Source: Chloroflexota bacterium (GTDB taxonomy: Bacteria; Chloroflexota; Anaerolineae; B4-G1; SLSP01). From it: DNA of 58,862 nt. How positions within the stretch are numbered: the stretch's first letter is position 1; every line of letters starts with the position of its first letter. The stretch spans positions 1 through 58,862 of the forward strand of contig JAIOAS010000004.1 of assembly GCA_019873725.1 (NCBI GenBank), given 5' to 3'. The notes beneath the pieces are model-generated. The model had not been told where the DNA came from. It saw only the letters and a program-made list of their open reading frames with translations, and searched no databases. Made by a program: the position numbers and the translations under genes. Below are positions 10,564 to 58,862 of the stretch, in pieces.

Positions 10564-10586
10564 GCTTTTAAGGAAAGGATCACACA

Positions 10587-10820: not shown

Positions 10821-10837
10821 GGTAGAGAACGTCACAG

Positions 10838-24863: not shown

Positions 24864-24888
24864 TGTCTGACTTGGCTCCAACGATATA

Positions 24889-31829: not shown

Positions 31830-34715
31830 ATGGGCTTCTGTTCACACTGTGAAACCTATCTCCCGCCAGAGACAGCCGCCTGCCCGGTGTGTGGCGTTTC
31901 TGCACCCGCACCGGCAGCGCTTGTACCCGCCTGGGCCGTACCCTTGCCCTCATCGCTATCCGGTGCGCCGGTGGCATTCGCTGGGGGGATACTGGCGGCC
32001 AGCCACACGGAGCGCGCTGCCGTCCTGGAATGGCGCGCTATCGCAAACGGGCACAGGGGGTGGCACTGCACCTTCGACAACACCTTGATCACCGGCATGG
32101 TCGCCACCGGAGAACGCCTCCTGGTCAGCCTCACCAGCACAGACCCGCTGCACGGACAGGGCGCGCTCGTGGCCCTGGATGCGGCAGGGCACGAGGTCTG
32201 GCGCTGGACGACAGAAATACAGCACATCTCTGCCCCCGTTATCGCCGGAGATGCCGTCTACGTCACTGCCGGCGCCGGTCATCTGGTCGTCGTGGATATC
32301 ACCACCGGCGCGGAACAAGGGCGCTGGGCGTTGCCCGTTTCCGTGTCGCTCGCCGCGCCCGCCGTCGCCGGGGAAACGCTCTACCTGCCGTGCCGCGGGC
32401 CGCACCTGCTGGCCGTCACCCTCTCCGGCGCGCTGCGCTGGCGCTTCGACGCTCCGCTGCCGGAAAACGCCTGGCTGCACCACACGCCAGCGCTTTGGCA
32501 GAATACCGTCTTTGCCGCCAGCAGCGCCGGGCTGATCTTCGCGTTGCAGGCGGATAGCGGCATAGTGCGCTGGCAGGTCCCGGTCGGCCCGCTGGACCGG
32601 CCCCTGAGTCCGCCCGTCACAGACGGCGAACGCCTCTACGTGGGCGCGCGGGATGGTCTGCACGCCCTGACCCTGAACGGCGAACCGCTCTGGCATTTCC
32701 CCACCGCACAGAAAATCACCGCTGCACCGGTCGTCGTGGGTGGTGTGGTGTATGCCGCGTGTTGGGACCGCTGCCTCTACGCGCTGGATGCCGTCACGGG
32801 CCGGAAATTGTGGCGCTATCCGGTGGAACGGCACATTGAAGTCGCGCCGCTCATTTTCTCGGCCGATACCGATCAGGCCTACGCCGTGATCGCCGATGCG
32901 GGCGGCACGCTCACCGCGCTCATCCGCCCTCGCAGCGCTGCCGAACAGGAGGCCGCCGGGCAATGGCAAGAAGCCGCGTGCGCCTACGCCGCGCTGGATC
33001 AACCCGCGCGTGGAGCCGCGCTCCTGGAAGCGCACGGCCAACCGTACCAGGCCGCGCAATTGTGGGAAGTCGCCGATGAACCGGAGCGGGCAGCCATACA
33101 GTACGAAATAGCCGGACATTGGGAGCAAGCCGCCGGTCTGTGGGCCAGGCTAGGACAACCCTTGCGCCAGGCGGAAGCGTTGCAACAACACGCGCGTTCC
33201 CTGGCAGAGGGGAAGACGCCATTGGACATCCAGGCCGCGCTCTGGGAGCAGATCGCCGCCCTCTACGCCGAACACAATCAGCCCACATTGGCAGAACACT
33301 GCCGTCGCGAGGTCGCCCGCTGCCGTCAGCAACCGGTCATCGCCTTGACCATTGAACACAGCGGATTGGTGCTGGGTGAATGGTCGTTGGTGCACTTCAT
33401 CGTGCACAACGCCGGGTTTGGTCCGGCGCGCAATCTGGTCATCCACACCGACAAGGCGTGCTTCGTCGGACAGGTGACGCAGACGCAGCGCATCACCACC
33501 TTGAAGGCGGGGGAGCAAGAAGTGCGCACGCTCGACCTCAAGCCGTTGGAAGCCGGCAGTGCGCCATTGCGAGTAACGGTGGAGTTCACCGATCAGTCCG
33601 GTAAGCCGATGCCCTGGGAGAAGACTATCCACCTGCCTGTGGCGCGGGAAGCTGCCGCGCGCGCAACGCAGACACATACGCAGGTCTTCCGCGCCACGCG
33701 CTTTGTGGACCTGGAAATCCGCATCTTCAAACGCGCGGAGGCGGGCTATCCCGTCGAAATCACGCTGGCCGGGCAGCAGCACTTCGCCGGTATCATTGCC
33801 GCAGACCTGGCCCACTGGATTCCCTCCGCCGATACCACAGTCGATGGTCGCGCCTTGTTCGCTGCGCTCACCGCCGACCCGGCACTGGCGAATGCCTGGG
33901 CGCGCTGTCGCGGGCAGGCTCCACAGCGGCGGGTCCGCCTGTGGCTCGATGTGGCTGCGCCAGAACTGCACAGTATTCCGTGGGAATGTCTATGTGCAGA
34001 CACGCTCCCCCTCGCGGCAGACGCGGCCACGCCTTTCTCACGCTACCTGCCCACGCAGGACGAATGGGGCGCTGTCATCACCACCCGTCCGGTGCGCGTC
34101 CTGGCCGCTATCGCCAATCCCACCGACCTGGCGAAGTACAATCTGGCCAGGCTGGATGTGGAGCAGGAACAGGCACTTGTCACAAGTGCGTTGAGCGGCG
34201 TAGATAACTTTCAGGTGGACTTCCTCCCTGTGCCGGTGACGTTGGCGCGCCTGGAAGAACGCTTGCGTGCCGGGTATCATCTGCTGCACCTGGTCGGTCA
34301 CGGCGTCTACAATCCCCGCCAACACACAACGGCTTTGTGCTTGCAGGGTAAAGCCGGCCAAACGCAGCTTGTCACCGACGCAGAGTTCGGTGCAATGTTA
34401 ACCCGCCAGGGGATACGCCCACGTTTGGTCGTGCTGGCCGCCTGTCACGGCGCGACGCGCTCCACCGCCGATGCGTGGCGCGGGATAGCGCCCGCACTGG
34501 TGCAGGCCGGCGTCCCGGCTGTCGTGGCGATGCAGGGCGCAGTCGCAATACCGACAGCGCAGGCGTTCACCGCCGCATTCTACCGCGCGCTGGCCGAGCA
34601 CGGCGCGGTCGACCTGGCCCTCAACCAGGCCCGCAGCCTGCTCATCAGCCAGGGCTGCTGCGATGTTGCCCTGCCGGTGCTTCTGATGCGACTGCAGGAT
34701 GGGCAGATCGTGTGA
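31830..34715 (+). CDS. Multidomain CHAT (caspase-HetF) protease: zinc ribbon, PQQ-like beta-propeller, TPR-like helices, Ig/CARDB-like domain, CHAT
   Basis: CSHCETYLPPETAACPVCG is the zinc ribbon. Repeated G.VY..a..G.L.AL....G...W blades form the propeller. The CHAT dyad context is HLLHLVGHG and LVVLAACHGA. Confidence 0.8.
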   Translation: MGFCSHCETYLPPETAACPVCGVSAPAPAALVPAWAVPLPSSLSGAPVAFAGGILAASHTERAAVLEWRAIANGHRGWHCTFDNTLITGMVATGERLLVSLTSTDPLHGQGALVALDAAGHEVWRWTTEIQHISAPVIAGDAVYVTAGAGHLVVVDITTGAEQGRWALPVSVSLAAPAVAGETLYLPCRGPHLLAVTLSGALRWRFDAPLPENAWLHHTPALWQNTVFAASSAGLIFALQADSGIVRWQVPVGPLDRPLSPPVTDGERLYVGARDGLHALTLNGEPLWHFPTAQKITAAPVVVGGVVYAACWDRCLYALDAVTGRKLWRYPVERHIEVAPLIFSADTDQAYAVIADAGGTLTALIRPRSAAEQEAAGQWQEAACAYAALDQPARGAALLEAHGQPYQAAQLWEVADEPERAAIQYEIAGHWEQAAGLWARLGQPLRQAEALQQHARSLAEGKTPLDIQAALWEQIAALYAEHNQPTLAEHCRREVARCRQQPVIALTIEHSGLVLGEWSLVHFIVHNAGFGPARNLVIHTDKACFVGQVTQTQRITTLKAGEQEVRTLDLKPLEAGSAPLRVTVEFTDQSGKPMPWEKTIHLPVAREAAARATQTHTQVFRATRFVDLEIRIFKRAEAGYPVEITLAGQQHFAGIIAADLAHWIPSADTTVDGRALFAALTADPALANAWARCRGQAPQRRVRLWLDVAAPELHSIPWECLCADTLPLAADAATPFSRYLPTQDEWGAVITTRPVRVLAAIANPTDLAKYNLARLDVEQEQALVTSALSGVDNFQVDFLPVPVTLARLEERLRAGYHLLHLVGHGVYNPRQHTTALCLQGKAGQTQLVTDAEFGAMLTRQGIRPRLVVLAACHGATRSTADAWRGIAPALVQAGVPAVVAMQGAVAIPTAQAFTAAFYRALAEHGAVDLALNQARSLLISQGCCDVALPVLLMRLQDGQIV

Positions 34716-39658: not shown

Positions 39659-41971
39659 ATGACAGAATTGATGGGTCAGGCCATTGGAGCGTACCGGCTC
39701 ATCGCCAAGTTGGGCGAAGGCGGGATGGCTGAAGTCTACAAGGCGTACCAACCTCGCCTCGAACGCGAGGTCGCACTCAAGTTCATCCGCCCTGAACTTG
39801 CCGCCGATGCGGAGTTTCGGGGGCGTTTCGAGCACGAGGCGCAAGCGATAGCCCGCCTGAGCCACCCCAACATAGTTCACGTCTATGACTTTGGCGAGGA
39901 AGGCACTCGCTATTACCTGGTGATGGAATACGTCCCTGGCCAAACCCTTAAGGGACGCCTGGAATCACTGCGCGCTGCCGGGAAGACGATGGACTGGGAC
40001 GAGGCCTGCCGCATCATCAACCAGATCGCCGCGGCATTGGACTATGCTCATCAGCAGGGCATCATCCATCGTGACGTGAAGCCGGCTAACATTATGCTGA
40101 CCCCCGACGGGCGCGCGTTGCTCAATGACTTCGGCATCGCCAAGATGCTCGGTACGTCACAGGCGCTGACACAGACCGGCGGCACCATCGGCACGCCCGC
40201 CTATATGTCGCCGGAACAAATTCGCGGCGACAAAGAACAGCTTGGCCCGACCAGCGATCTCTATTCACTTGGCATCGTGTTGTACGAAATGTTGACCGGG
40301 CGCGTACCTTTCGTTGCAGACACGCCACTGGCGGTGTTGTACAAACACTTGCACGACCCCATTCCACTGCCACGCACCCTTGCGCCGACCTTGCCCGAAG
40401 CCACTGAACGGGTGCTCCTCAAGGCGTTGGCCAAAGACCCCACAGATCGCTATCCCGATGGACAAAGCTTGACTCAGGCTCTGCAAGCCAGCTTTTCCAC
40501 GCCTACACTACCCCTACCGACTCCCCGACGGACACGAACGCGCCCGGTCTGGCTCATTCCGGTTATCATTGTTGCAATGTTGGCGACGGTCATTTACGGT
40601 GTTTTGGCGTGGCGCACCGAACAGTCGCGCTTCTTACAGCCGCAACAACCAGCGACGCAGACTATGGCTGTCTCTGATGCGACAGCCACCTTCACCGCTG
40701 TTGCAGCTACCGCGATCCCCACTGCGACTTCCACGACGACGGCCATGTTCCCCACTCCCACCGCCACACCACGGCCACAGGCCACCCCCTGGGGGACAAC
40801 CGCTACTTCTGCAACATTGATCACTGTGGTGCAGCAGTTCGCGGCCCCCGGTTACCGTGCCGAAGGTCTCACGTGGGATGGTACGCATCTGTGGGTTGCG
40901 GATAATTCGGGGACGATCTTCCAGGTAGATGCTGCCGGTCGAACACTCGGCGCTTTCGCAGCGCCAGAAGTGACCCCGCAGGGCTTGGTCTGGGATGGCA
41001 CAAGTTTCTGGGTCTTCACCACCAATTATGGCCGCATTTACCAGTTCCAAATCGAGGGTACAGAGACGCGCACGTTGGGCTCCTTTGAGACCCCGGCGCG
41101 CGTTTTTGGTGGCGACATCAGCCAGGAGCTGGCCTGGGATGGCACGCATTTGTGGTACGCCAACCAGTTCAACGTCTACCAGTTGGATACGTCCGGCAAC
41201 ACCCTCTGCACCTTCGCCTTCGCGCAGAATGTGGCCGGCCTGGAATGGGACGGCGAACGTCTTTGGCTAGCGTACGGAGGGTGGCCGGCGCTTTCAACCC
41301 TCGCGGTGGTCGATGCGACAGGAAACGTGATGATGACCTTTTCTGCTCCGGTTCACGGGATTCTGGCGCTGGCGTGGGGTGACAATACGTTGTGGGCATT
41401 GGGGCGCGAGTTACACGGGACTGCGATCCAAATTTACCAACTGGACGTATCCCGTGCATATGCAACCCTCACTCAGATTTCTGATTCATCCTGGCAAGCC
41501 GAGGCGCAAGCCGTGCGTAGGGCGTCTACCTTGCGCGCTTACACTGCCACGCCAAGCGATACCAAAGCCCCGCACGTGGCCGAAGCCGGGACAGTATTTC
41601 TGGTGGTTGATTTGGGGCTACGTGGCTCAGAAAAGGGCGTACTCCTGAACCTGGAGGATGTACGAGTGACGGATAACCAGGGGCGCGCTTATCCCGTGAT
41701 GGGAATGGCCTTGTCGTCGGACGACGGTTTTGCCCTTGGTGAAACCAGCGGCATGATCCATATGCTAAACCTTGATCCACCCGCGCTGGACATCCAATTC
41801 ACGATTGTGCAAAGCGGAGTGTGGGGATCCGAGACCATTGAGGGAAACATGCTGGTCAATGCTCCCAGCGGTGCGTGGCCGGTGGTGCAACTTGTCTTTG
41901 TCGTGCCTGAAGATGCTGGCGGATTGCAGCTAGCTGGTCTTGGAACGGGGACCGATTTGGTCATTCCTTGA
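39659..41971 (+). CDS. Transmembrane Ser/Thr protein kinase with extracellular beta-propeller-like repeats
   Basis: Kinase motifs GEGGMAEVY, HRDVKPAN, DFG and TPAYMSPE. One TM segment (VWLIPVIIVAMLATVIYGVLAW). Repeated W(D/E)GTHLW blades. Confidence 0.9.
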   Translation: MTELMGQAIGAYRLIAKLGEGGMAEVYKAYQPRLEREVALKFIRPELAADAEFRGRFEHEAQAIARLSHPNIVHVYDFGEEGTRYYLVMEYVPGQTLKGRLESLRAAGKTMDWDEACRIINQIAAALDYAHQQGIIHRDVKPANIMLTPDGRALLNDFGIAKMLGTSQALTQTGGTIGTPAYMSPEQIRGDKEQLGPTSDLYSLGIVLYEMLTGRVPFVADTPLAVLYKHLHDPIPLPRTLAPTLPEATERVLLKALAKDPTDRYPDGQSLTQALQASFSTPTLPLPTPRRTRTRPVWLIPVIIVAMLATVIYGVLAWRTEQSRFLQPQQPATQTMAVSDATATFTAVAATAIPTATSTTTAMFPTPTATPRPQATPWGTTATSATLITVVQQFAAPGYRAEGLTWDGTHLWVADNSGTIFQVDAAGRTLGAFAAPEVTPQGLVWDGTSFWVFTTNYGRIYQFQIEGTETRTLGSFETPARVFGGDISQELAWDGTHLWYANQFNVYQLDTSGNTLCTFAFAQNVAGLEWDGERLWLAYGGWPALSTLAVVDATGNVMMTFSAPVHGILALAWGDNTLWALGRELHGTAIQIYQLDVSRAYATLTQISDSSWQAEAQAVRRASTLRAYTATPSDTKAPHVAEAGTVFLVVDLGLRGSEKGVLLNLEDVRVTDNQGRAYPVMGMALSSDDGFALGETSGMIHMLNLDPPALDIQFTIVQSGVWGSETIEGNMLVNAPSGAWPVVQLVFVVPEDAGGLQLAGLGTGTDLVIP

Positions 41972-45046: not shown

Positions 45047-47582
<2,536 letters not shown>

Positions 47583-47713: not shown

Positions 47714-48146
<433 letters not shown>

Positions 48147-48149
48147 CTT

Positions 48150-48209
48150 GGACAGGATTGACAGGATGCACAGGATTTCTCTATCCTGGAAATCCTGTGA
48201 ATCCTGTCC
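48150..48209. promoter_or_regulatory. Operator-like array: 3 direct plus 3 inverted ACAGGAT boxes at 9-bp spacing, overlapping a TTGACA-18-TATCCT promoter
   Basis: ACAGGAT at 48152, 48161 and 48170. ATCCTG(T) at 48183, 48192 and 48201. TTGACA at 48158-48163 and TATCCT at 48182-48187. Confidence 0.5.
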
Positions 48210-48249
48210 AAAACATATATTCATAGACAGAAAGGGGAAGAAACACACA

Positions 48250-48648
48250 ATGCCATATTTGATCCTGACCTTACATATCCTGGCCCTCGTCCTGGCTCCC
48301 GGCGCACTACGCTGGGCCTTGGCCCCGATGTGGGGCGCGGCAGCGGCGCTGGCCTACTTCAAGCCCGATGACCGGGCGGCGACCACGAACTACATCTACT
48401 TCTTCCTCGCGGGCAACGCCGGTCTGCTCTTTGCCTACCGCATCGCCGCGTTGCTAGTCAGCGGGACACCGGAGCCAGGGGCGACGACGCTCTACGGCAT
48501 CTCGGTGTGGCTGCTGGGCTTTGCCGTGATGTCGGCCATCGGCTTCTACGCCTATGTTCTGCGCTTCCTGTTCTGGGATCGCAGCACGCCGTTCTTCGGC
48601 GGACGGATGACGACGCGCGACGTATTGCGGCAGGTGAAAAGGCAGTAG
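48250..48648 (+). CDS. Small integral membrane protein (132 aa, ~4 TM segments)
   Basis: AAAGGGGAAG RBS. Hydrophobic segments include ILTLHILALVLAP, MWGAAAALAYF, YIYFFLAGNAGLLFAYRIAALLV and ISVWLLGFAVMSAIGFYAYVL. Confidence 0.65.
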   Translation: MPYLILTLHILALVLAPGALRWALAPMWGAAAALAYFKPDDRAATTNYIYFFLAGNAGLLFAYRIAALLVSGTPEPGATTLYGISVWLLGFAVMSAIGFYAYVLRFLFWDRSTPFFGGRMTTRDVLRQVKRQ

Positions 48649-48715
48649 ACGGAATACGGTAGACGGTAGACAGGGGGGACTATCCCCGTCTACCGTCTAC
48701 GGTCTACCGTCTACC
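48645..48715. repeat. Palindromic array of GGTAGAC heptads
   Basis: GTAGAC/GGTAGAC occurs 3x (48645-48671), then a G6/C4 loop region, then GTCTACC 4x (48688-48715). The first unit overlaps the stop codon. Confidence 0.8.
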
Positions 48716-48731
48716 ACATCAAGGAGAACCT

Positions 48732-51700
48732 ATGAACAACACAAACACCGCCAACAACACCTTCTCAATGACCCTCACCCCTGACGGCGCATCCTTGCAC
48801 GCCTACGCCTGGGCCTTGCCCCACGGCTGGCGGGCATGGTCGCCGCACGCGCTGCGTATCCTGCGTAAGCCCTACCGCCACGCGCGGACGCACCTGGAAC
48901 TCACCGATGACGTGGTAAGCAGCCTGTACGACCCGCAAGGCGCGCGCAACATGGCTGCCGCCTTTGGCCTGGCCAACGTGCCGGAATTGGGCCTTGTCCA
49001 GGTCTACGGTGGGCTGGCAATGGGCAAGACCCAGGAACAGGCCGTGCAAGCTGCGGCCCTGAACTCGGCGCGCCTGGTTGCGGCGCTGCAAGGGCGCTTC
49101 CGGCAGTCGCGCTTTACCTTGCTATCCGCCGATGAAGCCTCGGCCTTGTACAATCACTTGTGGGCTTGTCGCCACACCGCTTCCCTGATTGGCCAAATGG
49201 TGCCGCGCATCGCACCCGGAATGGGATCCAGCCACGGCATCAACCAACTGGTCACCACCGACGCGCAAGAGCAGCTCGAAGTCATCGCCGCCGCGCTGGC
49301 CGGGGAACCGTTCGCCGTCTTGACCCTGGCGCATCCCTTACACGCGCTGGACATCCGGCGGATGTTGACTGACACTGCCCAAGCCCTGAGCTACTTCGCC
49401 TCCAAGGTGAAACAGAGCGAGTCGGCTAACGTGAGTGCGGTGCTGCCCCTGTTCCTCAACCCGGTGGCGGTCTTCAGCGAGCAGACGCATCGTGCGACGC
49501 AGGTGACGCGGGCCGATCAACGCCTGCGCACCGAGCAGAACGCCCATCGCCTGGCCGCCGGGCAGTCCGATGCGGTCAGCGCCTACCGCCGTGAAACTGC
49601 GAGCCGCGAGGCGCACCAGGGACAGGAGAACACCGGCTACTACGAGAAACAGCACGTGCGTGAAGATGTGCGCGAACACGAGGAAGCGCAGGTCAACCTG
49701 GAACGCGACTATGCCGACAACTACAGCCTGTCCCGGTCGTACAGCGGCAGCGAGGCCGGCGTGATGCAGACCCAGGGCGCACGCGATGCCACCCAGCAGG
49801 GCAACCGCCAGCAGCACACCGACGAGACCGGCCAGTTGCACAGCGTCGAGAGCATCGATGAGCGCGTCAGCGGCGTGCGCTCCGGGGCAGGCAGCCGGTC
49901 TAGCGTGGAAGCCTTCAGCGTCGGAGAACGCTACACCGGTGGCAGCAGCCGGACCTGGGAAGGGGGCTACAACGAACAGACCGAGCGGTCGTTCAGCGGC
50001 GCGGGCAACGAACACACCCAAGGCGGCTACCAACAGGCCGAAATCGGCGTCAGCAACGAGGCGAGCAGCGAGGGCTTTGTGCGCAACACCGAAAGCGATG
50101 TACACGGCGATGGGGCGCAGATGCAGACCTACGCTGAACAAGGCGTCGAAGGCAGCCTTTCCCCGCGCATCTTCGGCATCGGCGGCGGCGAGACGATGGA
50201 AGCCGGGGAGCGGGGCAATATGTACGAGTCCCGCGATCACGAATTGGCCAATGTCACCGGTAGCCTGGACACCGACCGCGGCAGCCAGCAAAGCGCGCTC
50301 ACGGGCGGAATCCAACAGGCCAACAACGCCTACAAGCGCAGCGGCAACCAGCAAGAGGCGCTGGGCCAGACCTGGCAGGGTAACGAGACGGTGCAGACCG
50401 CGGAGTGGCGCAGCGGCGGCGGGGTGCGGTCGAGTCAGATGACCTATGGCTACAGCGAAGCCTACCAGGACGCCAGCCATACCGACCGCGCAGCGCAGCG
50501 CGCCTGGGAGAGCGCCGTGGATCAGGACGCCGCCTGGCAGCAGGCCACCCGCGACGGCTATCAAGGGGTGGAACACTTCGCCCGCACCTTTGGCGGCAGC
50601 TATGCCGAGACCGGGCAGCGCAGCGGGCATCTCTCGCAGCAGGATACCATCATCGCCGACCGCGCGCTACAACGCGAGTCCGACCGGGTGGTCAACGGCT
50701 TCCGCAGCGAGACGTTTGACGGCTACCGCAATTCACAAGAGCAGACCAGCGGGGCTGAAGCCCGGCAAGAGGCGATGATCGGTGAGGGGCGCGAGTACGT
50801 GCAAGCCCAGGCCGCCGAACAGGTCGGGGCGACGCTGGCGAACGTGGGGCGTACCCAGGTGACGACACGGGGCGTGATGGGGCCGTCCGGCGGTTCCCTT
50901 GTAGCGGGCCTGGCCTTCGCCCGGCAGATCGTGGACACGCAGCGTGACTTGGTGGCGCAGTTGCTCGACCAGCAGGTGCGCCGCTTGAGCGCCGGGCTGG
51001 ACACCGGGCTGTTCCTGACGCAGGTGACGCTGCTGGCCCCCGACGAGGCCCGGTTAGAACGCCTGGCTGCCGCGTCCATTGCGGCGATGCGCGAGGAGAA
51101 CGTCGTCGTGCCCGTCGCCGCGCGCGCAGGGGACGAGACGCTGTGGCAACGGGCGATCACGTTGGACTTCGATGCCCGCACGGAAGACGCTGGGCCATTT
51201 GATACCTTGCGCCACGCCCAAACCCTGACGGCCAACGAATTAGCGGCGCTCGTGCATCCAATCCGCATCTCGGACGGCACGATCTCGGCCTCGCTGGATG
51301 CCTGGCCGGAAGACCTGTCGCACCGTCGCACGCAAGGGGAAATCGCGCTAGGTCTGGTGCTGGACGTCAATCTGCAGCCGGATCCCAATAATGTCCACCG
51401 CTTCCGCGCTGACGAACTGATGCACACCGTCATCGTTGGGGATTCTGGCTCCGGCAAATCCAACTCCGCGCTGTGGTTTGTCTCGCAAGTGGTGAATACA
51501 GTGCGACAAGATGAACACGGTATTCCGATCCCTGCCCCCATCATCGGGCCGGTACGGACCGGCGCGGCAGGTGGGACGCCGCGCATCGGGGTGACGGTCT
51601 TCGATCCAACGGGGGAATGGCGTAAGTTGGGTAAATTGGTTCCGGCCCGCGACTTTCAGTTCTACTCGTTGACCGATCCAGGGGAATATCCATTGCAGTT

Positions 51701-52700
51701 CAACCCGTTACGCATCCCCAGCCCGTACCTGCACCCGGCGAAGTGGGCGGCGGCATTTGCCAAACACTGGCTGCTGGCCTATCCCGCCGGGGCGACCGGT
51801 TTCCACCAGCTCAAGGGCGCGGTGCTGGACGCTTACCGCGCGGCGGGCGTCATCGAGGAGGACGGCAGGGTGTACCTGGAACGTTCGGCGAACTTGTGTA
51901 TGAAGGACTTACACACCGCCCTGGTCGCACGCTACAAGGTACTCAGCGAAGAACGCAGCGACACCATCACGGCGGGCGTAGTCAAGCGCATCATCGACAA
52001 GGTGGAAGAGTTCTTGCCGAAGGGGGTGTACTGTAGCGCCTTCGGGCAACCAGGGGGCACGACGGTCGCCGAGTGGACAGCCCCGGACAAGGCGACGGTC
52101 ATCACGGGCAAATTCGGCGATGACGGGCCGCTGAAGCAGTTCATCATTGGCCTGATGGTGTCCGGCATCTACCAACATGCAGACGAACGCTATGAGCATT
52201 ACTTACGTCAAGGGCAACCCATTCCGCAGCATCTCCTGTTCGTCGAAGAAGCGCACGTGGTGATGCGCTCGGACGCCTCGACCCAAACGGAGATCGCCCA
52301 GGCTATCGGCGAGGACGCGGGGCTGTGGAACAACATCACCGACCGGGGCCGTAAGTTGGGGCTGTACCTGTGGACATCGGCGCAGCATTGGGAGCCGCTG
52401 CCGTCTGGTGTCGTCACGTCCAGTAGCATTGCCATTATTCAGAAGGTGAGCACGGTGAAGGACGCCGAAATCGCGGTGTCGAAGGCCGGGCGCTTGCCGG
52501 GGAAGACCAGCCTTGACGACTACTCCAAGTGGACGCTGAGTGTGCTCAATATGCCCACGGGGGTCGGCTATGTGCGGCGTACACGCAAGACGTTGAGCCA
52601 GGAAAGCGAAATGGAGATTTTCCCGGTACAATTTGTGGACATTTCGGGGATCGTCCCGCCTGCGGATGCGGAGTTGGAGTGGATTGTGGGAGGAGGGTAA
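48732..52700 (+). CDS. Giant HerA/FtsK-superfamily (DUF87-like) P-loop ATPase with novel N-terminal domain and ~450-aa low-complexity insert
   Basis: AAGGAG RBS. Walker A is HTVIVGDSGSGKSNS, followed by VFDPTGEW. Walker B is LLFVEEAH, and RGRKLGLYLWTSAQ follows. Residues ~250-700 are Q/E/G/S/R/A/T-rich and almost free of hydrophobic runs. Confidence 0.75.
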   Translation: MNNTNTANNTFSMTLTPDGASLHAYAWALPHGWRAWSPHALRILRKPYRHARTHLELTDDVVSSLYDPQGARNMAAAFGLANVPELGLVQVYGGLAMGKTQEQAVQAAALNSARLVAALQGRFRQSRFTLLSADEASALYNHLWACRHTASLIGQMVPRIAPGMGSSHGINQLVTTDAQEQLEVIAAALAGEPFAVLTLAHPLHALDIRRMLTDTAQALSYFASKVKQSESANVSAVLPLFLNPVAVFSEQTHRATQVTRADQRLRTEQNAHRLAAGQSDAVSAYRRETASREAHQGQENTGYYEKQHVREDVREHEEAQVNLERDYADNYSLSRSYSGSEAGVMQTQGARDATQQGNRQQHTDETGQLHSVESIDERVSGVRSGAGSRSSVEAFSVGERYTGGSSRTWEGGYNEQTERSFSGAGNEHTQGGYQQAEIGVSNEASSEGFVRNTESDVHGDGAQMQTYAEQGVEGSLSPRIFGIGGGETMEAGERGNMYESRDHELANVTGSLDTDRGSQQSALTGGIQQANNAYKRSGNQQEALGQTWQGNETVQTAEWRSGGGVRSSQMTYGYSEAYQDASHTDRAAQRAWESAVDQDAAWQQATRDGYQGVEHFARTFGGSYAETGQRSGHLSQQDTIIADRALQRESDRVVNGFRSETFDGYRNSQEQTSGAEARQEAMIGEGREYVQAQAAEQVGATLANVGRTQVTTRGVMGPSGGSLVAGLAFARQIVDTQRDLVAQLLDQQVRRLSAGLDTGLFLTQVTLLAPDEARLERLAAASIAAMREENVVVPVAARAGDETLWQRAITLDFDARTEDAGPFDTLRHAQTLTANELAALVHPIRISDGTISASLDAWPEDLSHRRTQGEIALGLVLDVNLQPDPNNVHRFRADELMHTVIVGDSGSGKSNSALWFVSQVVNTVRQDEHGIPIPAPIIGPVRTGAAGGTPRIGVTVFDPTGEWRKLGKLVPARDFQFYSLTDPGEYPLQFNPLRIPSPYLHPAKWAAAFAKHWLLAYPAGATGFHQLKGAVLDAYRAAGVIEEDGRVYLERSANLCMKDLHTALVARYKVLSEERSDTITAGVVKRIIDKVEEFLPKGVYCSAFGQPGGTTVAEWTAPDKATVITGKFGDDGPLKQFIIGLMVSGIYQHADERYEHYLRQGQPIPQHLLFVEEAHVVMRSDASTQTEIAQAIGEDAGLWNNITDRGRKLGLYLWTSAQHWEPLPSGVVTSSSIAIIQKVSTVKDAEIAVSKAGRLPGKTSLDDYSKWTLSVLNMPTGVGYVRRTRKTLSQESEMEIFPVQFVDISGIVPPADAELEWIVGGG

Positions 52701-52754: not shown

Positions 52755-54155
52755 TTACACTGTGCTGAGATCAGAACCACCCTCGGTAGCAGGCGTGTCA
52801 GCATTGAGCGCCTGCTCCAACAGCGCGAACACCGGTTCCAAACCCTCAATACCGGCAGCGCGGATGAGTTCCAGGTCACGGAAGGCATCACGCACAACGC
52901 CGGGGGCAGAGGTGATGTCCAGCGCGTGGCGATACTCAGTCAACGCAGGGGCAAGGAGATCATCACGTTGGGCAACATCAATCCAGCGTGGATCAAGTAT
53001 GGCCTGGCAAGTTAGTGCGGTAGCCAACGCATAACTCGGGATATAAAGCATGGGCGCTTCTTCCAATTTCAATTTACATCGAGTAATTGATCGAGTAAAC
53101 GCTTCTTCAGCGAGTGAGAAAGACTGTAGATACAGAAATGCGACACCTAGCATCAATGCGGCTTGGAAATCAGTCTCTGGGAACTCCATCTGCAATGCTT
53201 GGGTACAATAGTCTCGAGCCTGAGCGGGCTCTCCAATCCTTAGCATTGTCTTTCCTAACTGAAGTAATTGATAACTCTCATTCCAACGACCACCGATCTC
53301 GTGAGCGATTCCTAGACCTTCACGATGACATTCTATTGCTTCTTGCCAGCGCCCCAAATCTTGATAGGTCTGCCCTAAATAGCCAAGGTTCACAGCTTGA
53401 TTTACGCGCAGATCAATTTCGCGGGCTATTTTTAGTGCTCGTGCGTAACTTTCCACAGCGCGTTCAGGTTGATCGAGAGCGTTGTATATATGGCCGAGAC
53501 GAGTCAGATTGACGGACTCTTCCCAATCATCGTTGTTTTGCTGTGCAGTAGCGAGAGACTTTTCCACTATCATAGCAGCAAGCTCGAATTGTCCAAACGC
53601 AAGATAAAACCAGCTCAGACTTCCTGCTCGAGTCATCTTAAGTGTTGTGTCACCCAGCGCATATGTAAGTTTTAGCGAATCTTCGAAACATTGCATAGCG
53701 CGCTGGGTTTGGCCCTGATCTCGATAAGCAAATCCGAGTTGATAAAGTGCTTCACACGCATTACGGCGGTCTTTGTTATCTTGCGCAAGCTTGACTGTTA
53801 GTTCAAGATATTCAATCGCTTGCTCCGTTTGTCCTAAAACGCGCGACACTCGCCCCAAACCAACTAAGTTGGCAATTTGCATCTCCGGCGTCATCGGATG
53901 ACCAACGAGACGTTTTCTTAATTCGGATAACCACTGGCAATGTCCCCAAAGGTATAAGTAGCGGTAGTCAATGCACTCAAGCACTCTAGCGACCGCATCA
54001 AAGTCACCTGCCTGAATTCGATGGCTAATTTCGTTCAATTGCGGTTCCAGATCTTTTAGCGATATCCAGGCACTTTCTGGCTTACGGATGCTGACATAAT
54101 ATTCCGCTGCTCGCAGTTCCACGTTGCGACGATTGTAGGAGGTGACGTTATCCAT
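52755..54155 (-). CDS. TPR-repeat protein, STAND sensor-like cassette 1
   Basis: Starts MDNVTSYNRRNVELRAAEYYVSIRKP. Has about 10 TPR-like repeats and the tail DLELIRAAGIEGLEPVFALLEQAL. The ATG overlaps the cassette 2 stop (ATGGATAA). Confidence 0.85.
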   Translation of the reverse strand: MDNVTSYNRRNVELRAAEYYVSIRKPESAWISLKDLEPQLNEISHRIQAGDFDAVARVLECIDYRYLYLWGHCQWLSELRKRLVGHPMTPEMQIANLVGLGRVSRVLGQTEQAIEYLELTVKLAQDNKDRRNACEALYQLGFAYRDQGQTQRAMQCFEDSLKLTYALGDTTLKMTRAGSLSWFYLAFGQFELAAMIVEKSLATAQQNNDDWEESVNLTRLGHIYNALDQPERAVESYARALKIAREIDLRVNQAVNLGYLGQTYQDLGRWQEAIECHREGLGIAHEIGGRWNESYQLLQLGKTMLRIGEPAQARDYCTQALQMEFPETDFQAALMLGVAFLYLQSFSLAEEAFTRSITRCKLKLEEAPMLYIPSYALATALTCQAILDPRWIDVAQRDDLLAPALTEYRHALDITSAPGVVRDAFRDLELIRAAGIEGLEPVFALLEQALNADTPATEGGSDLSTV

Positions 54156-55500
54156 TCAATGCCCCTTCCAGAAGTTCAAACACTGGTTCCAGACCTTCAA
54201 CACCGGCGGCACGGATCAGTTCAAGGTCACGCAGCGCCTCACGCACTACGCCTAGTGCAGTAGTAATATCGAGAGCGCGACGGTATTCGGTCAAAGTAGG
54301 GAGAAGGAGAACCGAACTTTGTGTAGCAGCAGACCAATGTGAGTCACAAACGGCTTGACCGATTCGCGCAGCCGCAAGTGTATATTGCGCATCATACAAG
54401 TCTGTGGTAAGCTGTAATCGCCTCTGGCAATAATCTATCGCACGTTCGAATTGTTCAATTGCTGGTTGGTGTTGACAGAGACGTGCTATCCCCAAAGCTA
54501 GTACAGCCTGGTAATTGGTTTCGGTAACATTGAAATCGCACGCTTTTTCAAAACAGTGTTCCGCTGTGGCAAATTCACCAATGCTTAACCATATTCTCCC
54601 ACATTCCCACCAACGGTAACTTGCTATACGAGGATCATTGAGTACCTCGGCCAGAGCCAACGCCTCACGAACTAGAACGAGGGCTTGCTCGGAACGTTGC
54701 TGGATTGCATAGAGTGACCCCAAAAAACCCAACCAGACGCATATTCGCCGCCGATCTTGTAGGGATCGAGCAATCTGCAAAGCTATTTCACAACAATGGA
54801 GCGCATCCTCTAGGCGTCCCAATCTGCAGTAGGTAATGCCTAGACGGCCAGTTTGTACACCTTCTTCCAGACGATTATCAATGCGCCGTGCTATTGCTAG
54901 AGACTGTTGGTAACATTCCACCGCTGCATCAAATCGCCCAATACTGTTGTAGGCATGCCCCAAGTTACCAAGAATTTCGACTTCAGTGTCAGGAGTATTG
55001 TTTGCCTGGGCGAGTTGCAAGGCGGCTTGATCCATCGCGATAGCCCGATTGATCTGCCCAAGAGTACGATATGCCCGGCCTAGACGCAGTAGCTGAACAC
55101 TCTCCATCTGGTGATCGCCTATTTGACGTGCCAGTGCCAGCGCCTGGTGGTAGAAGTCGAGCGATATGTCAACTTGGTTGCGTGAGTAATATGCCAGACC
55201 CAGACTGCTGTAATTCGTGAGTCGCAGATAGGGATCACTCAAGTGCCCGCTGAGTTGTTGGCGCAATGTTGTCAGAAGTTCCACGTGCCCCCAACGATAC
55301 AAATATGCATAATCAATACTATCCAACAAGCGTGCAGCCACTTCGTAATCTATAGCCCGCACACGATGCACAAGTTCAGTCAATTGGGGCATCAAATCTT
55401 CAGTGGTCTGCCACTCACTTGGCGGTTTACGGATACTGGCATAGTAGTCCGCTGCGCGTAATTCAGCTTCGCGCTGAGTATAATTGGCTCGACTATTCAC
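54148..55500 (-). CDS. TPR-repeat protein, STAND sensor-like cassette 2
   Basis: By alignment with the paralogs, the start is GTG 55500 (MNSRANYTQREAELRAADYYASIRKP), with GGAG upstream. The tail is DLELIRAAGVEGLEPVFELLEGALNG. The start overlaps the NTPase stop. Confidence 0.85.
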   Translation of the reverse strand: MNSRANYTQREAELRAADYYASIRKPPSEWQTTEDLMPQLTELVHRVRAIDYEVAARLLDSIDYAYLYRWGHVELLTTLRQQLSGHLSDPYLRLTNYSSLGLAYYSRNQVDISLDFYHQALALARQIGDHQMESVQLLRLGRAYRTLGQINRAIAMDQAALQLAQANNTPDTEVEILGNLGHAYNSIGRFDAAVECYQQSLAIARRIDNRLEEGVQTGRLGITYCRLGRLEDALHCCEIALQIARSLQDRRRICVWLGFLGSLYAIQQRSEQALVLVREALALAEVLNDPRIASYRWWECGRIWLSIGEFATAEHCFEKACDFNVTETNYQAVLALGIARLCQHQPAIEQFERAIDYCQRRLQLTTDLYDAQYTLAAARIGQAVCDSHWSAATQSSVLLLPTLTEYRRALDITTALGVVREALRDLELIRAAGVEGLEPVFELLEGALNG

Positions 55501-57307
55501 CTTGCTCCTGTTCTCCTTCTGGAATCCGCCGGTACACATACTCGCGATCCATCGGGTGCAAACTATACTCCCCCGTCGCCCGATTGAAGGTCACGAAGTA
55601 GCTGTTGACCAAACGCCGCAGGCTGGCGCGCACATCCAACGCCGGGAACCAGGGTTGCAGCAGAAAGGCAATCGCCGTAGCATCGACAGGACGGTTGAAG
55701 ACCGCCAACGCTTCCATCACGCGACGTTCTTCTTCTCCCAAACGTTCATACCCGGCAGCGATCAAGCCTTCCATCACTTGTTCGCCAAACACGGTTTCAT
55801 CGGCCAATAGCTCAGTCAACGTCAACGTCGGGTCCCGATCCAGGATGCCGGCCAGGACTTCCAGGGCGCGCGGGATGCCCTGCGTGAGCTGCGCAGCGCG
55901 ACGCAGATCAGCTTCTGGCGCGTCACGCAATCCCAGGCGACCGTCGGGGTCGAAATCGCGCAGCAAAGCCATAGCATCATCTTCCGGCAGCCCTTCGCGT
56001 AGAGGGATGTGCCGCGCGCTTCGTACTGCCGCTGGCGCTACGGAGACTTGCTCCCGCGAGGTCGTAATCAATCGCGTCCCACCCGGTTGCAGCATACAGC
56101 GTTCTACGAAGAGCCGCAGTCCTTCCTCTTGAATGGCGTTGTCGTCATCCAACACATCTTCCAGGTTATCGAGCAAAATGACGTACACACCTTCTTGCAG
56201 TGTTTCCAGCAAATACTCCACCTTGGCGGCCAATGGCGTGTCGCGATCAGCCCACCGCGCGGCCAGGCGACTCGCTACGGGGTCGCCCAACATGCGGCCC
56301 ACATCGGTGTAGAGGCGTTCCAGGCTCAGTCCCGTGCTTCGCGCACTCAGGTAGAGTATCCCGTCCACCACTTGCGCCGCTGTCTTGCCCTGTGCCCCGG
56401 ATGCCGTTTCCACGGGTGCGTTTGTCAATATCGTTAGCTCGTCCGCCAGTTCGAGTAACCGGCGCTGGTTGGCGTCGCCATATTCCGTTTGTTCACTCAA
56501 AACGTGCAACAACAGCACCAGCGCATTCTCTGCGTGACCGGAAATGTCAGCCGTGTGGGCAAATAAGAAGGCAATCGTCCGCTGAATACGAGCAAAGACG
56601 CTATCGGCTTCGGGAATTTGGCTCTGCCAGGGAGCCAACCGCGCATCCACGAAGATAGCACGCAAGGCCGCGTCACTGTCGAATGCCCCACATGTCTGCA
56701 AAGCCGCACGTAGGCGACTGTAAAGCGCAGGGGGAATCCCAGCCGGTCGTTCACCAGGCACTGCTTCGGTAACGGGCGCGATCATCTCTTCCAGATCGGC
56801 CAGCACGTAACTGACCAACGCCGTCTTTCCCATACCTCCACGCCCTACCACACTGACCAAACGCACCGTGCCGTCGGTCAGATGCTCCCGCAATGCCAGG
56901 GCTTCGCGCACGCGATCCTTGAAAGTGTGCGTGACGTCCAGAGGGCGGACATTGACCACACGCTGTCGTTCGCGCCGCTCGCGGCGGTCGGCGTCATCCC
57001 AATCGCGCTTGGCACGCCACCAGGCCATATCCGCATCGAGCTGCGCCTGCGACCAGGCGGCAATGGCGGCATCCCAGGCCACATCAGGACGAATGGTTTT
57101 GCCGGCGTTCACCAATTCATAGACGCGATCTTCCTGGACAATGCGTTTGAGCAGCTCGCGTGCCTTGTGGCCTTGCTCTTGAGCCGGCAGTGCGTCGTAA
57201 TCCAGGCCTAAGTCAAAGCAGAGCGTACTCAAGTCATCGGCGGTCATCTGTGCAGCCAGTACCTGGCGCAGCGGGCTGAGATGCTGGGTCAAACTTGGTG
57301 TGGTCAT
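55493..57307 (-). CDS. NB-ARC/STAND NTPase lacking its own repeat sensor, with N-terminal EAD/death-like adaptor
   Basis: Has P-loop VVGRGGMGKTALV, Walker B VYVILLDNLED, GGTRLITTSRE, a GLPLAL-like QGIPRALEV and a winged-helix end YSLHPMDREYVYRRI. The N-terminus is LRQVLAAQMTADDLSTLCFDLGLDYDALP...KARELLKRI. Confidence 0.85.
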   Translation of the reverse strand: MTTPSLTQHLSPLRQVLAAQMTADDLSTLCFDLGLDYDALPAQEQGHKARELLKRIVQEDRVYELVNAGKTIRPDVAWDAAIAAWSQAQLDADMAWWRAKRDWDDADRRERRERQRVVNVRPLDVTHTFKDRVREALALREHLTDGTVRLVSVVGRGGMGKTALVSYVLADLEEMIAPVTEAVPGERPAGIPPALYSRLRAALQTCGAFDSDAALRAIFVDARLAPWQSQIPEADSVFARIQRTIAFLFAHTADISGHAENALVLLLHVLSEQTEYGDANQRRLLELADELTILTNAPVETASGAQGKTAAQVVDGILYLSARSTGLSLERLYTDVGRMLGDPVASRLAARWADRDTPLAAKVEYLLETLQEGVYVILLDNLEDVLDDDNAIQEEGLRLFVERCMLQPGGTRLITTSREQVSVAPAAVRSARHIPLREGLPEDDAMALLRDFDPDGRLGLRDAPEADLRRAAQLTQGIPRALEVLAGILDRDPTLTLTELLADETVFGEQVMEGLIAAGYERLGEEERRVMEALAVFNRPVDATAIAFLLQPWFPALDVRASLRRLVNSYFVTFNRATGEYSLHPMDREYVYRRIPEGEQEQGE

Positions 57308-58719
57308 ACGGTATTCTCCTGTAAGCTTGTAGGCGACGGCAAAGCGTCACCCGGTAAGGGTTGCCAATCAGCTATGGCCTGTTCTAACAAGACAAATGCC
57401 GGTTCTAGGCCGTCGATGCCGGCAGCACGGATGAGTTCCAGGTCACAAATAACATCTTTTACTACACCAGGTGCAGAACACATCTTTATTGCTTTTCGAT
57501 ACTCTTTTAATGATGGTATAAGTAGTTCGTGACGATTACATTGTGTTTTCCACTTTTCAGTGGCGACTACAAAACCCGCCAAAGCAGTGGCCAGTGAATA
57601 ACGGGGACGGTATAAGGTCACGGCATTGCTTAACAATGACTTGCTCTGAGTGATTGCCTCGGCAAATACATTTTTAGCGTTTGGATCAGACTGATGTAAC
57701 ATCGTGATGCCTAACACTAAAGTCGCGTTGTACTGGATATCTGGGATATCAGACACTATGGCTGCGGTGCAGCAGCTAAAGGCTTCAGAGATAGCACCAA
57801 TAGATAGCAAGGCTCTCCCCAGCATCGTTAATGCGTAGCTTACCGCACGTTCTTCGTGAATTCCTCGAGCGATTTCTAAAGAAACTTCATGACAGCGAAT
57901 AGCCTGTCTGAAATCTCCTAGGCTCTGATGTGCTATACCAATACAATTATGCAATATACACTCACTACGACGGTTGCCTATTTTTTGATTTATCTTCATG
58001 GCTTCTTCATACAACTCGATCGCTTCCTCAAATTGCCCCAGAGCTTGATAGATCAGTCCCAAGCCATGTAGATTCAATACAGTATTACCAGAATCTTCCA
58101 TTTCCCTTGCAATTGCCAAGCCATACCTATAAAACTTAGTTGCTTCTCCTATCTTCCCCAGTGTAAAATTAACAGAGCCAAGGTTTCCATATTGAGATGA
58201 TTCTAATTGCTGATCGCCAATAACCCGTGAAATAGCAAGGGATTTCTTGTATGATAGCATTGCTAGTTTTATTTGCCCAAGGATTTGATAAGTCTTACCA
58301 AGAGAGTTATGCAAATGAGCCTCAAGATAGGGTACGTTGATTCCTTGCGCGATACTCAGTGCTTGTGTATATAACTGACTGGCATGTTCTATATGACCCA
58401 TAGCATAATGAACGAATCCCAGATTGCTTAAGTTCATAGAACGTTGACCAGGGTCTATCAAGTATTTCTGGAGTTGCTGACGCATTTGTGCTAAGCGCTC
58501 ATAATATCCCCAGGTGGAGAGGTAATTTCGATCAACCGATTCAAGAATTTCAAACGCTTCTTTGATGTTTTGGCTGCATAATCTATGTTCAAACTCTGCT
58601 AGTTGTGGGGTCAAGTCATCAATTGTCTTCCACTCATCTTTCGGCTTGCGGATACTGGCATAATACTGCGCGGCACGCAGTTCCAGGGATCGGCAGGTGT
58701 AGGAGCTAACGTTGTTCAT
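57304..58719 (-). CDS. TPR-repeat protein, STAND sensor-like cassette 3 (very low GC)
   Basis: Starts MNNVSSYTCRSLELRAAQYYASIRKP. Has TPR repeats and the tail DLELIRAAGIDGLEPAFVLLEQAI. Its stop overlaps the NTPase ATG (ATGA). Confidence 0.85.
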   Translation of the reverse strand: MNNVSSYTCRSLELRAAQYYASIRKPKDEWKTIDDLTPQLAEFEHRLCSQNIKEAFEILESVDRNYLSTWGYYERLAQMRQQLQKYLIDPGQRSMNLSNLGFVHYAMGHIEHASQLYTQALSIAQGINVPYLEAHLHNSLGKTYQILGQIKLAMLSYKKSLAISRVIGDQQLESSQYGNLGSVNFTLGKIGEATKFYRYGLAIAREMEDSGNTVLNLHGLGLIYQALGQFEEAIELYEEAMKINQKIGNRRSECILHNCIGIAHQSLGDFRQAIRCHEVSLEIARGIHEERAVSYALTMLGRALLSIGAISEAFSCCTAAIVSDIPDIQYNATLVLGITMLHQSDPNAKNVFAEAITQSKSLLSNAVTLYRPRYSLATALAGFVVATEKWKTQCNRHELLIPSLKEYRKAIKMCSAPGVVKDVICDLELIRAAGIDGLEPAFVLLEQAIADWQPLPGDALPSPTSLQENTV

Positions 58720-58862
58720 GCAATGCTCCTTCCAGGAGTTCAAAGGCCGGTTGAAGTGCGCCCATAAAACTGGACACCAAAACGAAGTTTCTTAGTGAAT
58801 ATGCTCGGCAGCATCCGTCGCGTTCGCATAAAATTGTGCCTCAAATTCCACTGGGGTCAAGT

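Follow-up and report, generated by a model that had tools for sequence, protein, structure and literature searches.

The 58,862-nucleotide contig JAIOAS010000004.1 of a Chloroflexota bacterium from the Anaerolineae (assembly GCA_019873725.1), the whole of which we call the window, carries on its plus strand a two-gene module consisting of a small membrane protein, the partner (48250–48648), and an ATPase of 1322 amino acids (48732–52700). Comparison with homologous loci reveals that the ATPase belongs to the HerA clade, has a three-part domain architecture with intact motifs and is linked to its partner, and that both genes are part of a conserved cassette which is linked to Tad/Flp pilus operons and is also located on megaplasmids. 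From the gene content of these loci we suggest that ATPase and partner may form a DNA translocase which is tethered to the membrane and belongs to a conjugation-like system linked to Tad pili, a reading that we favor while hesitating to call it probable. It is the best-supported one in view of the relaxase-like protein of the cassette, the neighboring genes for single-stranded DNA-binding protein (SSB), the megaplasmid location and the precedents within the HerA clade, and it fits the conserved neighbors better than any rival explanation.

Architecture and family of the ATPase

The ATPase gene (48732–52700, plus strand) is one uninterrupted frame. More than 10 independent assemblies contain full-length orthologues of 1317–1338 aa with 77–92% identity, and two relatives of 40% identity are likewise full length. 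Thus, the long open reading frame (ORF) described in the initial annotation is genuine and not an assembly artefact. In the locus L016 (L-numbers denote the compared loci of homologues, P-numbers the homologous ATPase proteins) the orthologous gene at 8010–11898 is broken by a frameshift into ORFs of 675 and 680 aa which overlap, and is either a pseudogene or affected by a sequencing error.

The protein comprises an N-domain (residues 1–245, nt 48732–49466), a low-complexity middle region (residues 246–715, nt 49467–50876, 470 aa), a pre-ATPase region (residues 716–895, nt 50877–51416) and the C-terminal ATPase domain (residues 896–1322, nt 51417–52697). The four HerA/DUF87-type motifs previously noticed are all present in the latter: the Walker A motif GDSGSGKSNS (residues 903–912, nt 51438–51467), FDPTGEW (residues 957–963), the Walker B motif LLFVEEAH (residues 1168–1175, nt 52233–52256) and GRKLGLYLWTSAQ (residues 1206–1218).

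The assignment of the ATPase to the HerA clade (DUF87) is secure. With the single window sequence the Pfam DUF87 match is sub-threshold (14.8 vs 23.2 bits), and single-sequence PDB searches were uninformative. A profile of 48 family members matched DUF87/HerA chains of the PDB with E values of 4e-19 to 1e-16, the Walker A, Walker B and GRK...Q motifs being aligned, and furthermore archaeal HerA (2e-11), DptH (4e-11) and TdpA (4e-9); the match to FtsK (2e-4) was confined to the P-loop. The AlphaFold model of residues 715–1322 was computed from a shallow alignment and is poor overall (pLDDT 57) and weak outside about residues 200–445 of the construct, with a confident ATPase core. Foldseek with this model placed DndH-C, TdpA and HerA on top (3e-9 to 1e-5). 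Profile and fold thus agree on a RecA-like P-loop core with Walker A, Walker B and arginine/Q motif, which upholds the earlier designation as a HerA-like ATPase. Membership in HerA proper is not supported. HerA equivalog models reached 18–28 bits in relatives against cutoffs of 800–970, and none of the loci examined showed a gene for NurA, Sir2 or DUF4297; residues 716–895, the place for a HAS-barrel, are modelled at pLDDT <50.

The same Foldseek search gave the coupling proteins TrwB and Cag-beta at ~1e-4 and weak matches to EccC/EssC (E 0.1–1.4). Together with the large surface proteins encoded in some loci, the latter could be taken to indicate a protein-secretion ATPase of EccC/EssC type which exports Tad-associated substrates. 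We give this idea hardly any credence, as HerA-type DNA ATPases are much more similar to the protein and as no WXG-like or other substrate genes are conserved, but DNA-handling genes instead. The ATPase also differs from type IV coupling proteins, since its own polypeptide has no transmembrane (TM) segment (maximum KD19 1.68, inside the N-domain); VirB4 or other genes of type IV secretion systems (T4SS) were not seen near the homologues in the loci examined.

The protein aligns end to end (residues 39–1316, E 4e-108) with the NCBIfam family NF033849 (‘ser_rich_anae_1’, serine-rich protein), whose alignment has the same layout of N-domain, long low-complexity region and C-terminal P-loop ATPase. 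Its score of 362.2 bits lies below the curated cutoff of 650, and distant relatives of the N-domain (P0043, P0044, P0050, P0063) exceed this cutoff with 793–1128 bits. The window protein is therefore placed at the periphery of NF033849, as a divergent outlier clade of a family that is curated but functionally uncharacterised. In this respect the homology searches take away the orphan status of the protein without leading to a characterised family. Indexed searches with the full protein and with N-domain and C-domain profiles returned about 30 close clusters or fragments, words of the low-complexity region and the P-loop saturating the candidates; the wider family was reached by an exhaustive phmmer search with the N-domain only, which found 61 clusters (50% identity) among 1.84 billion representatives, mostly proteins of 1100–1760 aa with the domain at the N-terminus. 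Source names of family proteins are ‘hypothetical’, ‘ATP-binding protein’ and ‘HerA-like ATPase’, and the organism labels are Anaerolineae metagenome-assembled genomes (MAGs). A phage origin was rejected, since tblastn against 50,697 phage records gave zero matches.

The N-domain is predicted by AlphaFold as an alpha/beta fold (residues ~10–230, mean pLDDT 75, core >90). Pfam, NCBIfam domains, PHROGs, PDB and BFVD gave no significant match, and the best Foldseek matches of the model in PDB and BFVD, a type III secretion system (T3SS)-chaperone/YbjN-like fold, the VirB4 N-domain and Rep/HUH-like folds, had E values of at least 0.007 and TM scores <0.3 and were not used. It remains a new domain, in agreement with the unfamiliar domain of ~240 aa that had been pointed out before (~245 aa by our delimitation).

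The middle region has the very long Lys- and Pro-poor composition reported for it (K 0.4%, P 0.2%, G 12%, Q 10.6%, A 10.6%, E 10%, S 9.6%, R 8.9%), with few hydrophobic residues and a net charge of −25. Its identity is 87% to the closest relative P0009 (folded domains 92–97%), 67–71% to P0012 and P0013 (80–89%) and 35–36% to the 40%-identity relatives P0017 and P0018 (43–46%). Among close relatives there are zero indels over the 470 residues, and the motifs LERDYAD.Y.L.RSY, SGGG.R, YGYSEAY and GGSY.E.G.R.G.LSQ.D are invariant. Across the family the region spans ~380 to 880 residues and ranges from Ser-rich to Q/E/G-rich, always nearly without Lys and Pro. As it is conserved nearly like the folded domains and free of indels in close relatives, it is no passive spacer, which corrects its earlier description as a disordered insert. 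A strongly constrained Lys-/Pro-free region of 400–900 residues between a putative docking domain and a presumed ring ATPase is unexplained and of structural interest.

The membrane partner

The partner (48250–48648, plus strand) has 132 aa from its ATG, a YFKPDDR loop and a basic C-terminal tail. The length agrees with the initial annotation, which had assigned four TM segments; we find 3–4 hydrophobic segments. In every locus with upstream DNA the partner gene lies directly 5′ of the ATPase gene. In relatives with 40–49% identity the partner is 36–39% identical and has YFKPDDR, TPEPGATTLY and RYLFWE in common. In distant loci, including two clostridial plasmids, the protein at this position has 155–186 aa, is linked by BLAST and is built alike: the first two TM helices are followed by a P(D/N)(D/E)R loop, the third helix by an (N/D)TP motif and the fourth by a basic tail, in which one Arg is invariant. 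The partner stop overlaps the ATPase start by 1–29 nt in six of the distant loci, which suggests translational coupling; in the window both genes are separated by an 83-nt spacer containing a hairpin of GTAGACG heptads. Adjacent in all loci examined and overlapping in most of the distant ones, the small membrane protein is a true partner of the ATPase, as had been supposed. Searches for it in PADLOC, PHROGs, Pfam and NCBIfam gave no match.

A conserved cassette next to Tad/Flp pilus operons

In relatives the module is the end of a cassette with the conserved order membrane protein, winged-helix and PD-(D/E)xK protein, tiny TM protein, partner, ATPase. The cassette is found in ~10 independent lineages, namely Chloroflexota MAGs, unassigned metagenome contigs and two clostridial megaplasmids, and the homology of its members across phyla was confirmed by BLAST. 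The cassette has a Tad/Flp operon as its neighbor in most lineages, as a rule immediately 3′ of it, and SSB and replication or partition genes are often near. Tad components are located at most 10 kb away in ~10 of 13 independent contexts, whereas by our own estimate from 1–3 Tad loci per genome roughly a few percent would be expected for random genes. The initial annotation had stated that neither a nuclease partner nor a conjugation gene set is present. This is correct for the two-gene region itself, but most lineages carry both a MOB_C-like protein (see below) and the Tad operon, and half of the cassette, with its PD-(D/E)xK-type protein, is found elsewhere in the window, so that the survey of gene neighborhoods contradicts the absence of conjugation-type genes.

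The arrangement is best seen in relatives of 40% identity (L005, L006), where genes for proteins of 186 aa and 446 aa and an 81-aa TM protein precede partner and ATPase, and genes for a DUF4352-like lipoprotein, two small ParA-like proteins, a Zn-ribbon protein and a CpaB-like protein follow; further downstream L005 encodes CpaE, CpaF, TadB, TadC, Flp and three TadE proteins. The contig of L028 ends after the first ParA-like and CpaB-like genes; in L006 and L028 the first downstream Tad-associated genes are thus visible. In L015 (52% identity) and L029 (49%) the module is contiguous with the Tad operon. The bona fide NF033849 loci L024/L025 have SSB and genes for 222, 466, 55 and 182 aa before the ATPase gene and RcpC, CpaE, CpaF, TadB, TadC, Flp, TadE and TadG-like genes 3′ of it. 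In L026 and L031 TadE, TadG-like and giant PKD/Big protein genes (Flp in L031 only) are found just upstream of the cassette, which here consists of genes for 410–418, 67–71 and 182–186 aa and the ATPase; L031 additionally has SSB, and a ParM-like gene follows its ATPase gene. Relatives of 40–52% identity have a terminator hairpin just before the partner gene.

Two complete plasmids of cultured clostridial hosts carry the cassette, pRUMAL01 of Ruminococcus albus 7 (420 kb; ATPase WP_013483306.1) and pB6464 of Alkaliphilus sp. B6464 (436 kb; WP_212382473.1), both ATPases being annotated as ‘serine-rich protein’. On both plasmids (loci L032/L033) the order is SSB, ~280 aa, ~490 aa, ~66 aa, ~180 aa and ATPase, followed by RcpC-like, TadZ-like AAA, CpaF, two T2SSF, Flp, A24 prepilin peptidase and TadE genes, and both clusters adjoin primase and DnaE genes. 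These NF033849 members share with the window protein the three-part architecture, the N-domain, the HerA-type C-domain, the partner, the cassette and the Tad context; unlike them, the window protein has a middle region rich in Q/E/G/R and not in Ser, and the identity to the clostridial proteins is 23–24%. A third megaplasmid, from Pontibacillus (898 kb), encodes a TubZ-like protein, SSB, a partner-like TM protein and a DUF87 protein. All three PLSDB matches are thus megaplasmids of 420–898 kb. MOB-suite detected no conjugation machinery on them and typed two as non-mobilizable and one as mobilizable; pB6464 and the Pontibacillus plasmid are called non-mobilizable because typing tools rely on known relaxases and VirB4-type mating systems. 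SSB genes were found in L024, L031, L032, L033 and L034. A 141-aa protein in L030 is weakly SSB-like (E 0.057).

The proximity to the pilus genes could also mean that ATPase and partner serve the Tad pilus itself, as an additional motor or as a scaffold, and do not handle DNA, acting in retraction, septal positioning or adhesin export. FtsK-superfamily ATPases such as VirB4 and EccC can transport proteins, in many cases the Tad operon starts with the ATPase gene, and the giant PKD/Big proteins of L026 and L031 are adhesin-like. In addition, filamentous Chloroflexales, whose pili are of the Tad type only and were proposed to serve gliding, lack a canonical retraction ATPase (PMC7332563). Nevertheless we consider such a role unlikely: the known motors of pilus extension and retraction are of the PilB/PilT/CpaF family and not of the HerA clade, the family is rare (the above 61 clusters) in contrast to the common Tad loci, L010 and L034 have kept the module although Tad genes are not adjacent to it, and the winged helix-turn-helix (wHTH)/PD-(D/E)xK protein, SSB and the replication genes nearby would be unaccounted for.

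These replication genes lend themselves to another explanation, a membrane-anchored DNA pump for the maintenance of large replicons, which would act FtsK-like in segregation, decatenation or coupled to replication. Primase, DnaE and SSB genes beside the module on two megaplasmids, the TubZ-like and SSB genes on the third, the ParM-like gene in L031 and a DnaB gene after the cassette half of the window would suit such a function. It would leave the recurrent fusion to a complete pilus operon unaccounted for, several loci appear to be chromosomal, and the ATPase has no FtsK gamma-type DNA-recognition domain, its similarity to FtsK being that of the P-loop (E 2e-4); quite unlikely is therefore our assessment.

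Three MAGs each contribute several of the compared loci (L007, L008 and L014; L009 and L012; L010 and L015). In several Anaerolineae MAGs the entire module, together with the STAND island, occurs two or three times at ~90% identity or higher; these copies could be paralogous loci or bins mixing related populations.

A relaxase-like protein in the cassette

The second gene of the cassette is present in the window at 9078–10463. The encoded protein has a coiled coil, a winged-helix-like segment and a PD-(D/E)xK motif (PDLVV...VECERG...K...Y) and belongs to a family of 410–560-aa proteins which align over the coiled coil, the winged-helix-like block and a C-terminal PDLIV...VEVERG...K...Y; E299, E301, K313 and Y330 (window numbering) are invariant. 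Weak wHTH matches occur in the family, and three members match PF13814 (Replic_Relax) below its threshold, with E values of 3.6e-3, 9.4e-4 (profile positions 28–170 of 191) and 7.2e-3 (1–171 of 191), while the window protein itself has no Pfam match. PF13814 comprises PD-(D/E)xK domains, to which in most cases an HTH domain is fused (PMC3424549), and corresponds to the MOB_C class of relaxases (PMC5357655). The order of MOB_C/Replic_Relax, an HTH domain followed by a PD-(D/E)xK motif, is present in the family alignment. Sequence features of this kind make the protein a lead, that is a candidate DNA-processing protein of MOB_C/Replic_Relax type. A 390-aa protein of the Pontibacillus locus was considered as a further member and ruled out (hhalign probability 0.2).

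Function of the module

If the ATPase and its partner are indeed a DNA translocase linked to a Tad pilus, the HerA-clade P-loop ATPase would presumably form a ring and would be held at the cytoplasmic membrane by its obligate partner with 3–4 TM segments, docking on it through the N-domain on the long Lys/Pro-free linker. The Tad pilus would supply the cell contact or the conduit, the MOB_C-like protein would bind and process the DNA, and the ATPase would pump it through the membrane; for the pump we infer the substrate, the direction and the purpose. The outcome would be conjugation-like, or an export or import of DNA.

Such a function is in line with what has been described for related proteins. 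Characterised ring ATPases of the HerA/FtsK superfamily nearly all act on DNA (Iyer et al. 2004, cited in PMC6668835). Tad/Flp pili are needed for transformation in Micrococcus luteus (PMC4322843), and plasmids of C. acnes have tad loci with FtsK-like and VirB4 genes as neighbors (PMC5696575). TdtA of the element ICETh1 of Thermus thermophilus is a HerA/FtsK-superfamily ATPase which pushes donor DNA out, with a type IV pilus-type apparatus (PMC5365140); it resembles our case, by description and not by sequence, as a HerA/FtsK-superfamily ATPase on a mobile element with a pilus-type apparatus, but as described it lacks the architecture of N-domain and low-complexity region, and the pilus-like system of Thermus belongs to the recipient. 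In the Sulfolobales the membrane HerA/FtsK ATPases CedB and CedD move DNA with CedA, CedA1 and CedA2, beside Ups pili (PMC11823120). Relatives of the window protein weakly match CedD (1e-10) and CedB (7e-5), with 40 bits against a cutoff of 600; in contrast, the window protein has no CedB/CedD match, and the Ced system is archaeal with VirB2-like and not Tad pili. Streptomyces TraB moves DNA between cells (cited in PMC5696575). Like TraB and TrwB/VirD4, membrane-anchored ring ATPases of the superfamily that pump DNA, the ATPase described here would act at the membrane, and TrwB and Cag-beta are among its structural matches, the sequence profile of the family giving no TrwB match in the PDB; unlike them, it would be anchored by a separate partner, whereas their TM segments are in the same polypeptide. 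With the HerA/DUF87 systems (HerA-NurA, HerA-Sir2, HerA-DUF4297 and DndH/DptH) it shares the RecA-like core, Walker A, the EEAH Walker B and GRK...Q, but it has no NurA, Sir2 or DUF4297 partner and instead an extra N-domain, the low-complexity region, a separate membrane partner and the context of a pilus operon.

The ATPase superfamily and membrane-tethered DNA pumps are thus already known, and the family has its NCBIfam entry. In the literature that could be searched we found no description of the obligate membrane partner, of the MOB_C-like cassette or of the systematic Tad fusion on megaplasmids and in Chloroflexota. A preprint on the ‘Hodor’ megaplasmid turned out to be unrelated, as it concerns a T4SS-based system.

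A more specific proposal would be Tad-pilus-linked conjugation without a VirB4-type T4SS, in which Tad/Flp is the mating structure, ATPase and partner are the DNA translocase or coupling motor and the MOB_C-like protein is the relaxase. We regard this full scheme as doubtful, albeit worth naming: such a VirB4-free apparatus, if true, would be common to Anaerolineae and to clostridial megaplasmids now typed as lacking conjugation machinery.

Several points weigh against a Tad-linked DNA translocase. The confidence of the C-domain model is low overall (pLDDT 57). L010 (81% identity) has the module followed by metabolic genes and no Tad gene within 10 kb, although L015, another copy from this MAG, is part of a Tad operon; L030 sits among housekeeping genes; and the Pontibacillus locus lacks adjacent Tad genes, its 390-aa neighbor being unrelated to the relaxase-like family. 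The PF13814 assignments of that family are all sub-cutoff (17.9, 19.8 and 16.9 bits vs 25.3), and an oriT, an integrase or a canonical relaxase was not identified. The window has no Tad gene, and its cassette half lies 37 kb from the module. Finally, the Lys/Pro-free region of 470 aa is left without explanation.

Should a Tad pilus and a HerA-type motor indeed move DNA together, a class of large replicons and Chloroflexota elements would have to be reclassified as self-transmissible and Tad pili would gain a role beyond adhesion. In any case the uncharacterised family NF033849 receives a testable role, and with Ruminococcus albus 7 and Alkaliphilus sp. B6464 cultured plasmid-bearing hosts are identified.

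Organization of the window

The cassette of the window is present but split. Its upstream half (8276–10820) has the order and strand of L005 and encodes on the plus strand a 269-aa homologue of the 186-aa protein (8276–9085; tblastn, 41% identity; the L005 copy is membrane-anchored), the relaxase-like protein of 461 aa as homologue of the 446-aa protein (9078–10463; tblastn, 31% identity to L005) and a 77-aa homologue of the tiny 81-aa TM protein (10587–10820), which in other loci directly precedes the partner. About 37 kb of other DNA separate this half from partner and ATPase; this DNA contains IS21, a pair of DnaE2/ImuB type, genes for a reverse transcriptase, for kinases and for a CHAT protein, and an ORF resembling transposases. 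Directly after the upstream half follow a DnaB-type helicase (10838–12148) and an unassigned 489-aa protein with a C-terminal zinc-ribbon-like motif (12262–13731), and a DnaE-type polymerase with an ImuB/IMS-like gene is found at 20371–24881. As the clostridial megaplasmids also have primase and DnaE beside the cassette, the contig could be part of a large extrachromosomal replicon. A stand-alone reverse transcriptase (RVT_1, 27547–28632), an IS21-type pair (IstA/IstB, 14732–17205) and a DDE_5 transposase (3554–4963) indicate heavy traffic of mobile elements on the contig.

Downstream of the ATPase gene an island of TPR and EAD7-bDLD1 STAND genes extends on the minus strand to the contig end (52755–58743) and is not part of the system. 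None of the genes for CpaF/TadA, TadB, TadC, Flp, TadE/F or TadZ/CpaE was found in the window. In L007, L001 and L009 the island lies between the ATPase gene and a DUF4352-like gene, in L007 (93% identity) DUF4352-like and ParA-like genes follow the island on the plus strand, and in L001–L003 the DUF4352 gene is at the edge of the fetched region; DUF4352-like and ParA-like genes are the first genes 3′ of the ATPase gene in Tad operons of the L005 type. From these downstream genes in L007 and L001–L003 we infer that the Tad genes of the window lineage would lie just beyond the contig end and that the island is probably an insertion into a former operon.

The island raises the question whether the module is a HerA-based defence against phages or plasmids, possibly acting with the STAND/TPR/EAD7 neighbors. 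The window and close relatives embed the module among nSTAND, EAD7-bDLD1, TPR, CHAT and kinase genes, PADLOC gives weak matches to HerA (2e-7) and mad8, and the best PDB matches of the ATPase are HerA proteins of defence systems. However, the island is on the opposite strand, varies in content and is missing from all distant relatives, no co-oriented Sir2, DUF4297, NurA or other effector nuclease is present, and the conserved neighbors are pilus and DNA-handling genes together with a partner without a PADLOC match; a role in defence is thus very unlikely. Accordingly, the function that the initial annotation had left open is now less so, DNA transfer fitting better than defence.

Conflict and signalling genes are dense in three parts of the window, 52755–58743 (minus strand), 31830–34715 and 39659–41971. 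They encode an EAD7-bDLD1 STAND NTPase with several TPR paralogues on its flanks, a PQQ-propeller-CHAT protein, and Ser/Thr kinases that carry a fused FGE-sulfatase or propeller domain. In the TPR/STAND block the number of genes differs among copies of 90% identity.

Upstream of the module an ORF of 780 aa without family match and with a strong negative GC skew (45240–47582, plus strand) is absent from all related loci and was thus probably inserted between RlaP and the module in this lineage only. By eye, its C-terminal half resembles DDE transposases (FGYK...DAGEGYDD), and the ORF overlaps a sigma-70-like ORF at 45136–45831.

Promoter, leader and repeats

As the cassette is dispersed, the module of the window would be expressed alone, probably under the control of a leader with terminator and of an inverted-repeat operator. 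A strong sigma-70-like promoter (TTGAAA-18-TATAAT, 47929–47958, plus strand) is the start of a unit of promoter, structured leader of ~180 nt with three conserved hairpins and terminator (47929–48147, plus strand), the intrinsic terminator with its T-run being located at 48099–48138 (plus strand). In the subclade of the window this unit occurs once per locus and always 5′ of the partner gene, it is ~90–95% identical in eight related loci, and the leader has a folding z-score of −5; the eight copies are too alike for a covariation test. In the copy of the window 21 nt are tandemly duplicated (48045–48086), a feature which relatives lack. L010, L016, L020 and L021 (81–87% identity) have a simple promoter without the leader unit. 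Rfam has no family for the leader or the hairpins, Chloroflexi-1 scoring 19 bits against a threshold of 80 bits; matches of Rfam miRNA models to the perfect hairpins were discarded as spurious. Judged from its sequence, the unit may be an attenuator, a riboswitch-like leader or a separate small RNA.

Between terminator and partner gene an inverted repeat with 29-nt arms of ACAGGAT units (48148–48211, plus strand), a possible operator, overlaps a weak promoter-like site (TTGACA-18-TATCCT); it is kept in most close relatives and absent from L014. The operator-rich promoter postulated before the partner gene is consistent with this repeat, but the stronger promoter, the leader and the terminator lie further upstream. 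A second inverted repeat, with 31-nt arms of GTAGACG heptads, lies between the partner stop and the ribosome binding site of the ATPase gene (48645–48714, plus strand), its length and units differing between close relatives. The hairpins are thus built of ACAGGAT units at 9-nt spacing or of GTAGACG heptads, and in the relatives L007, L008 and L014 of GGTGACA-type units 3′ of the partner gene. The number of units varies between near-identical loci and the hairpins resemble heptanucleotide repeats of the short tandemly repeated repetitive (STRR) type.

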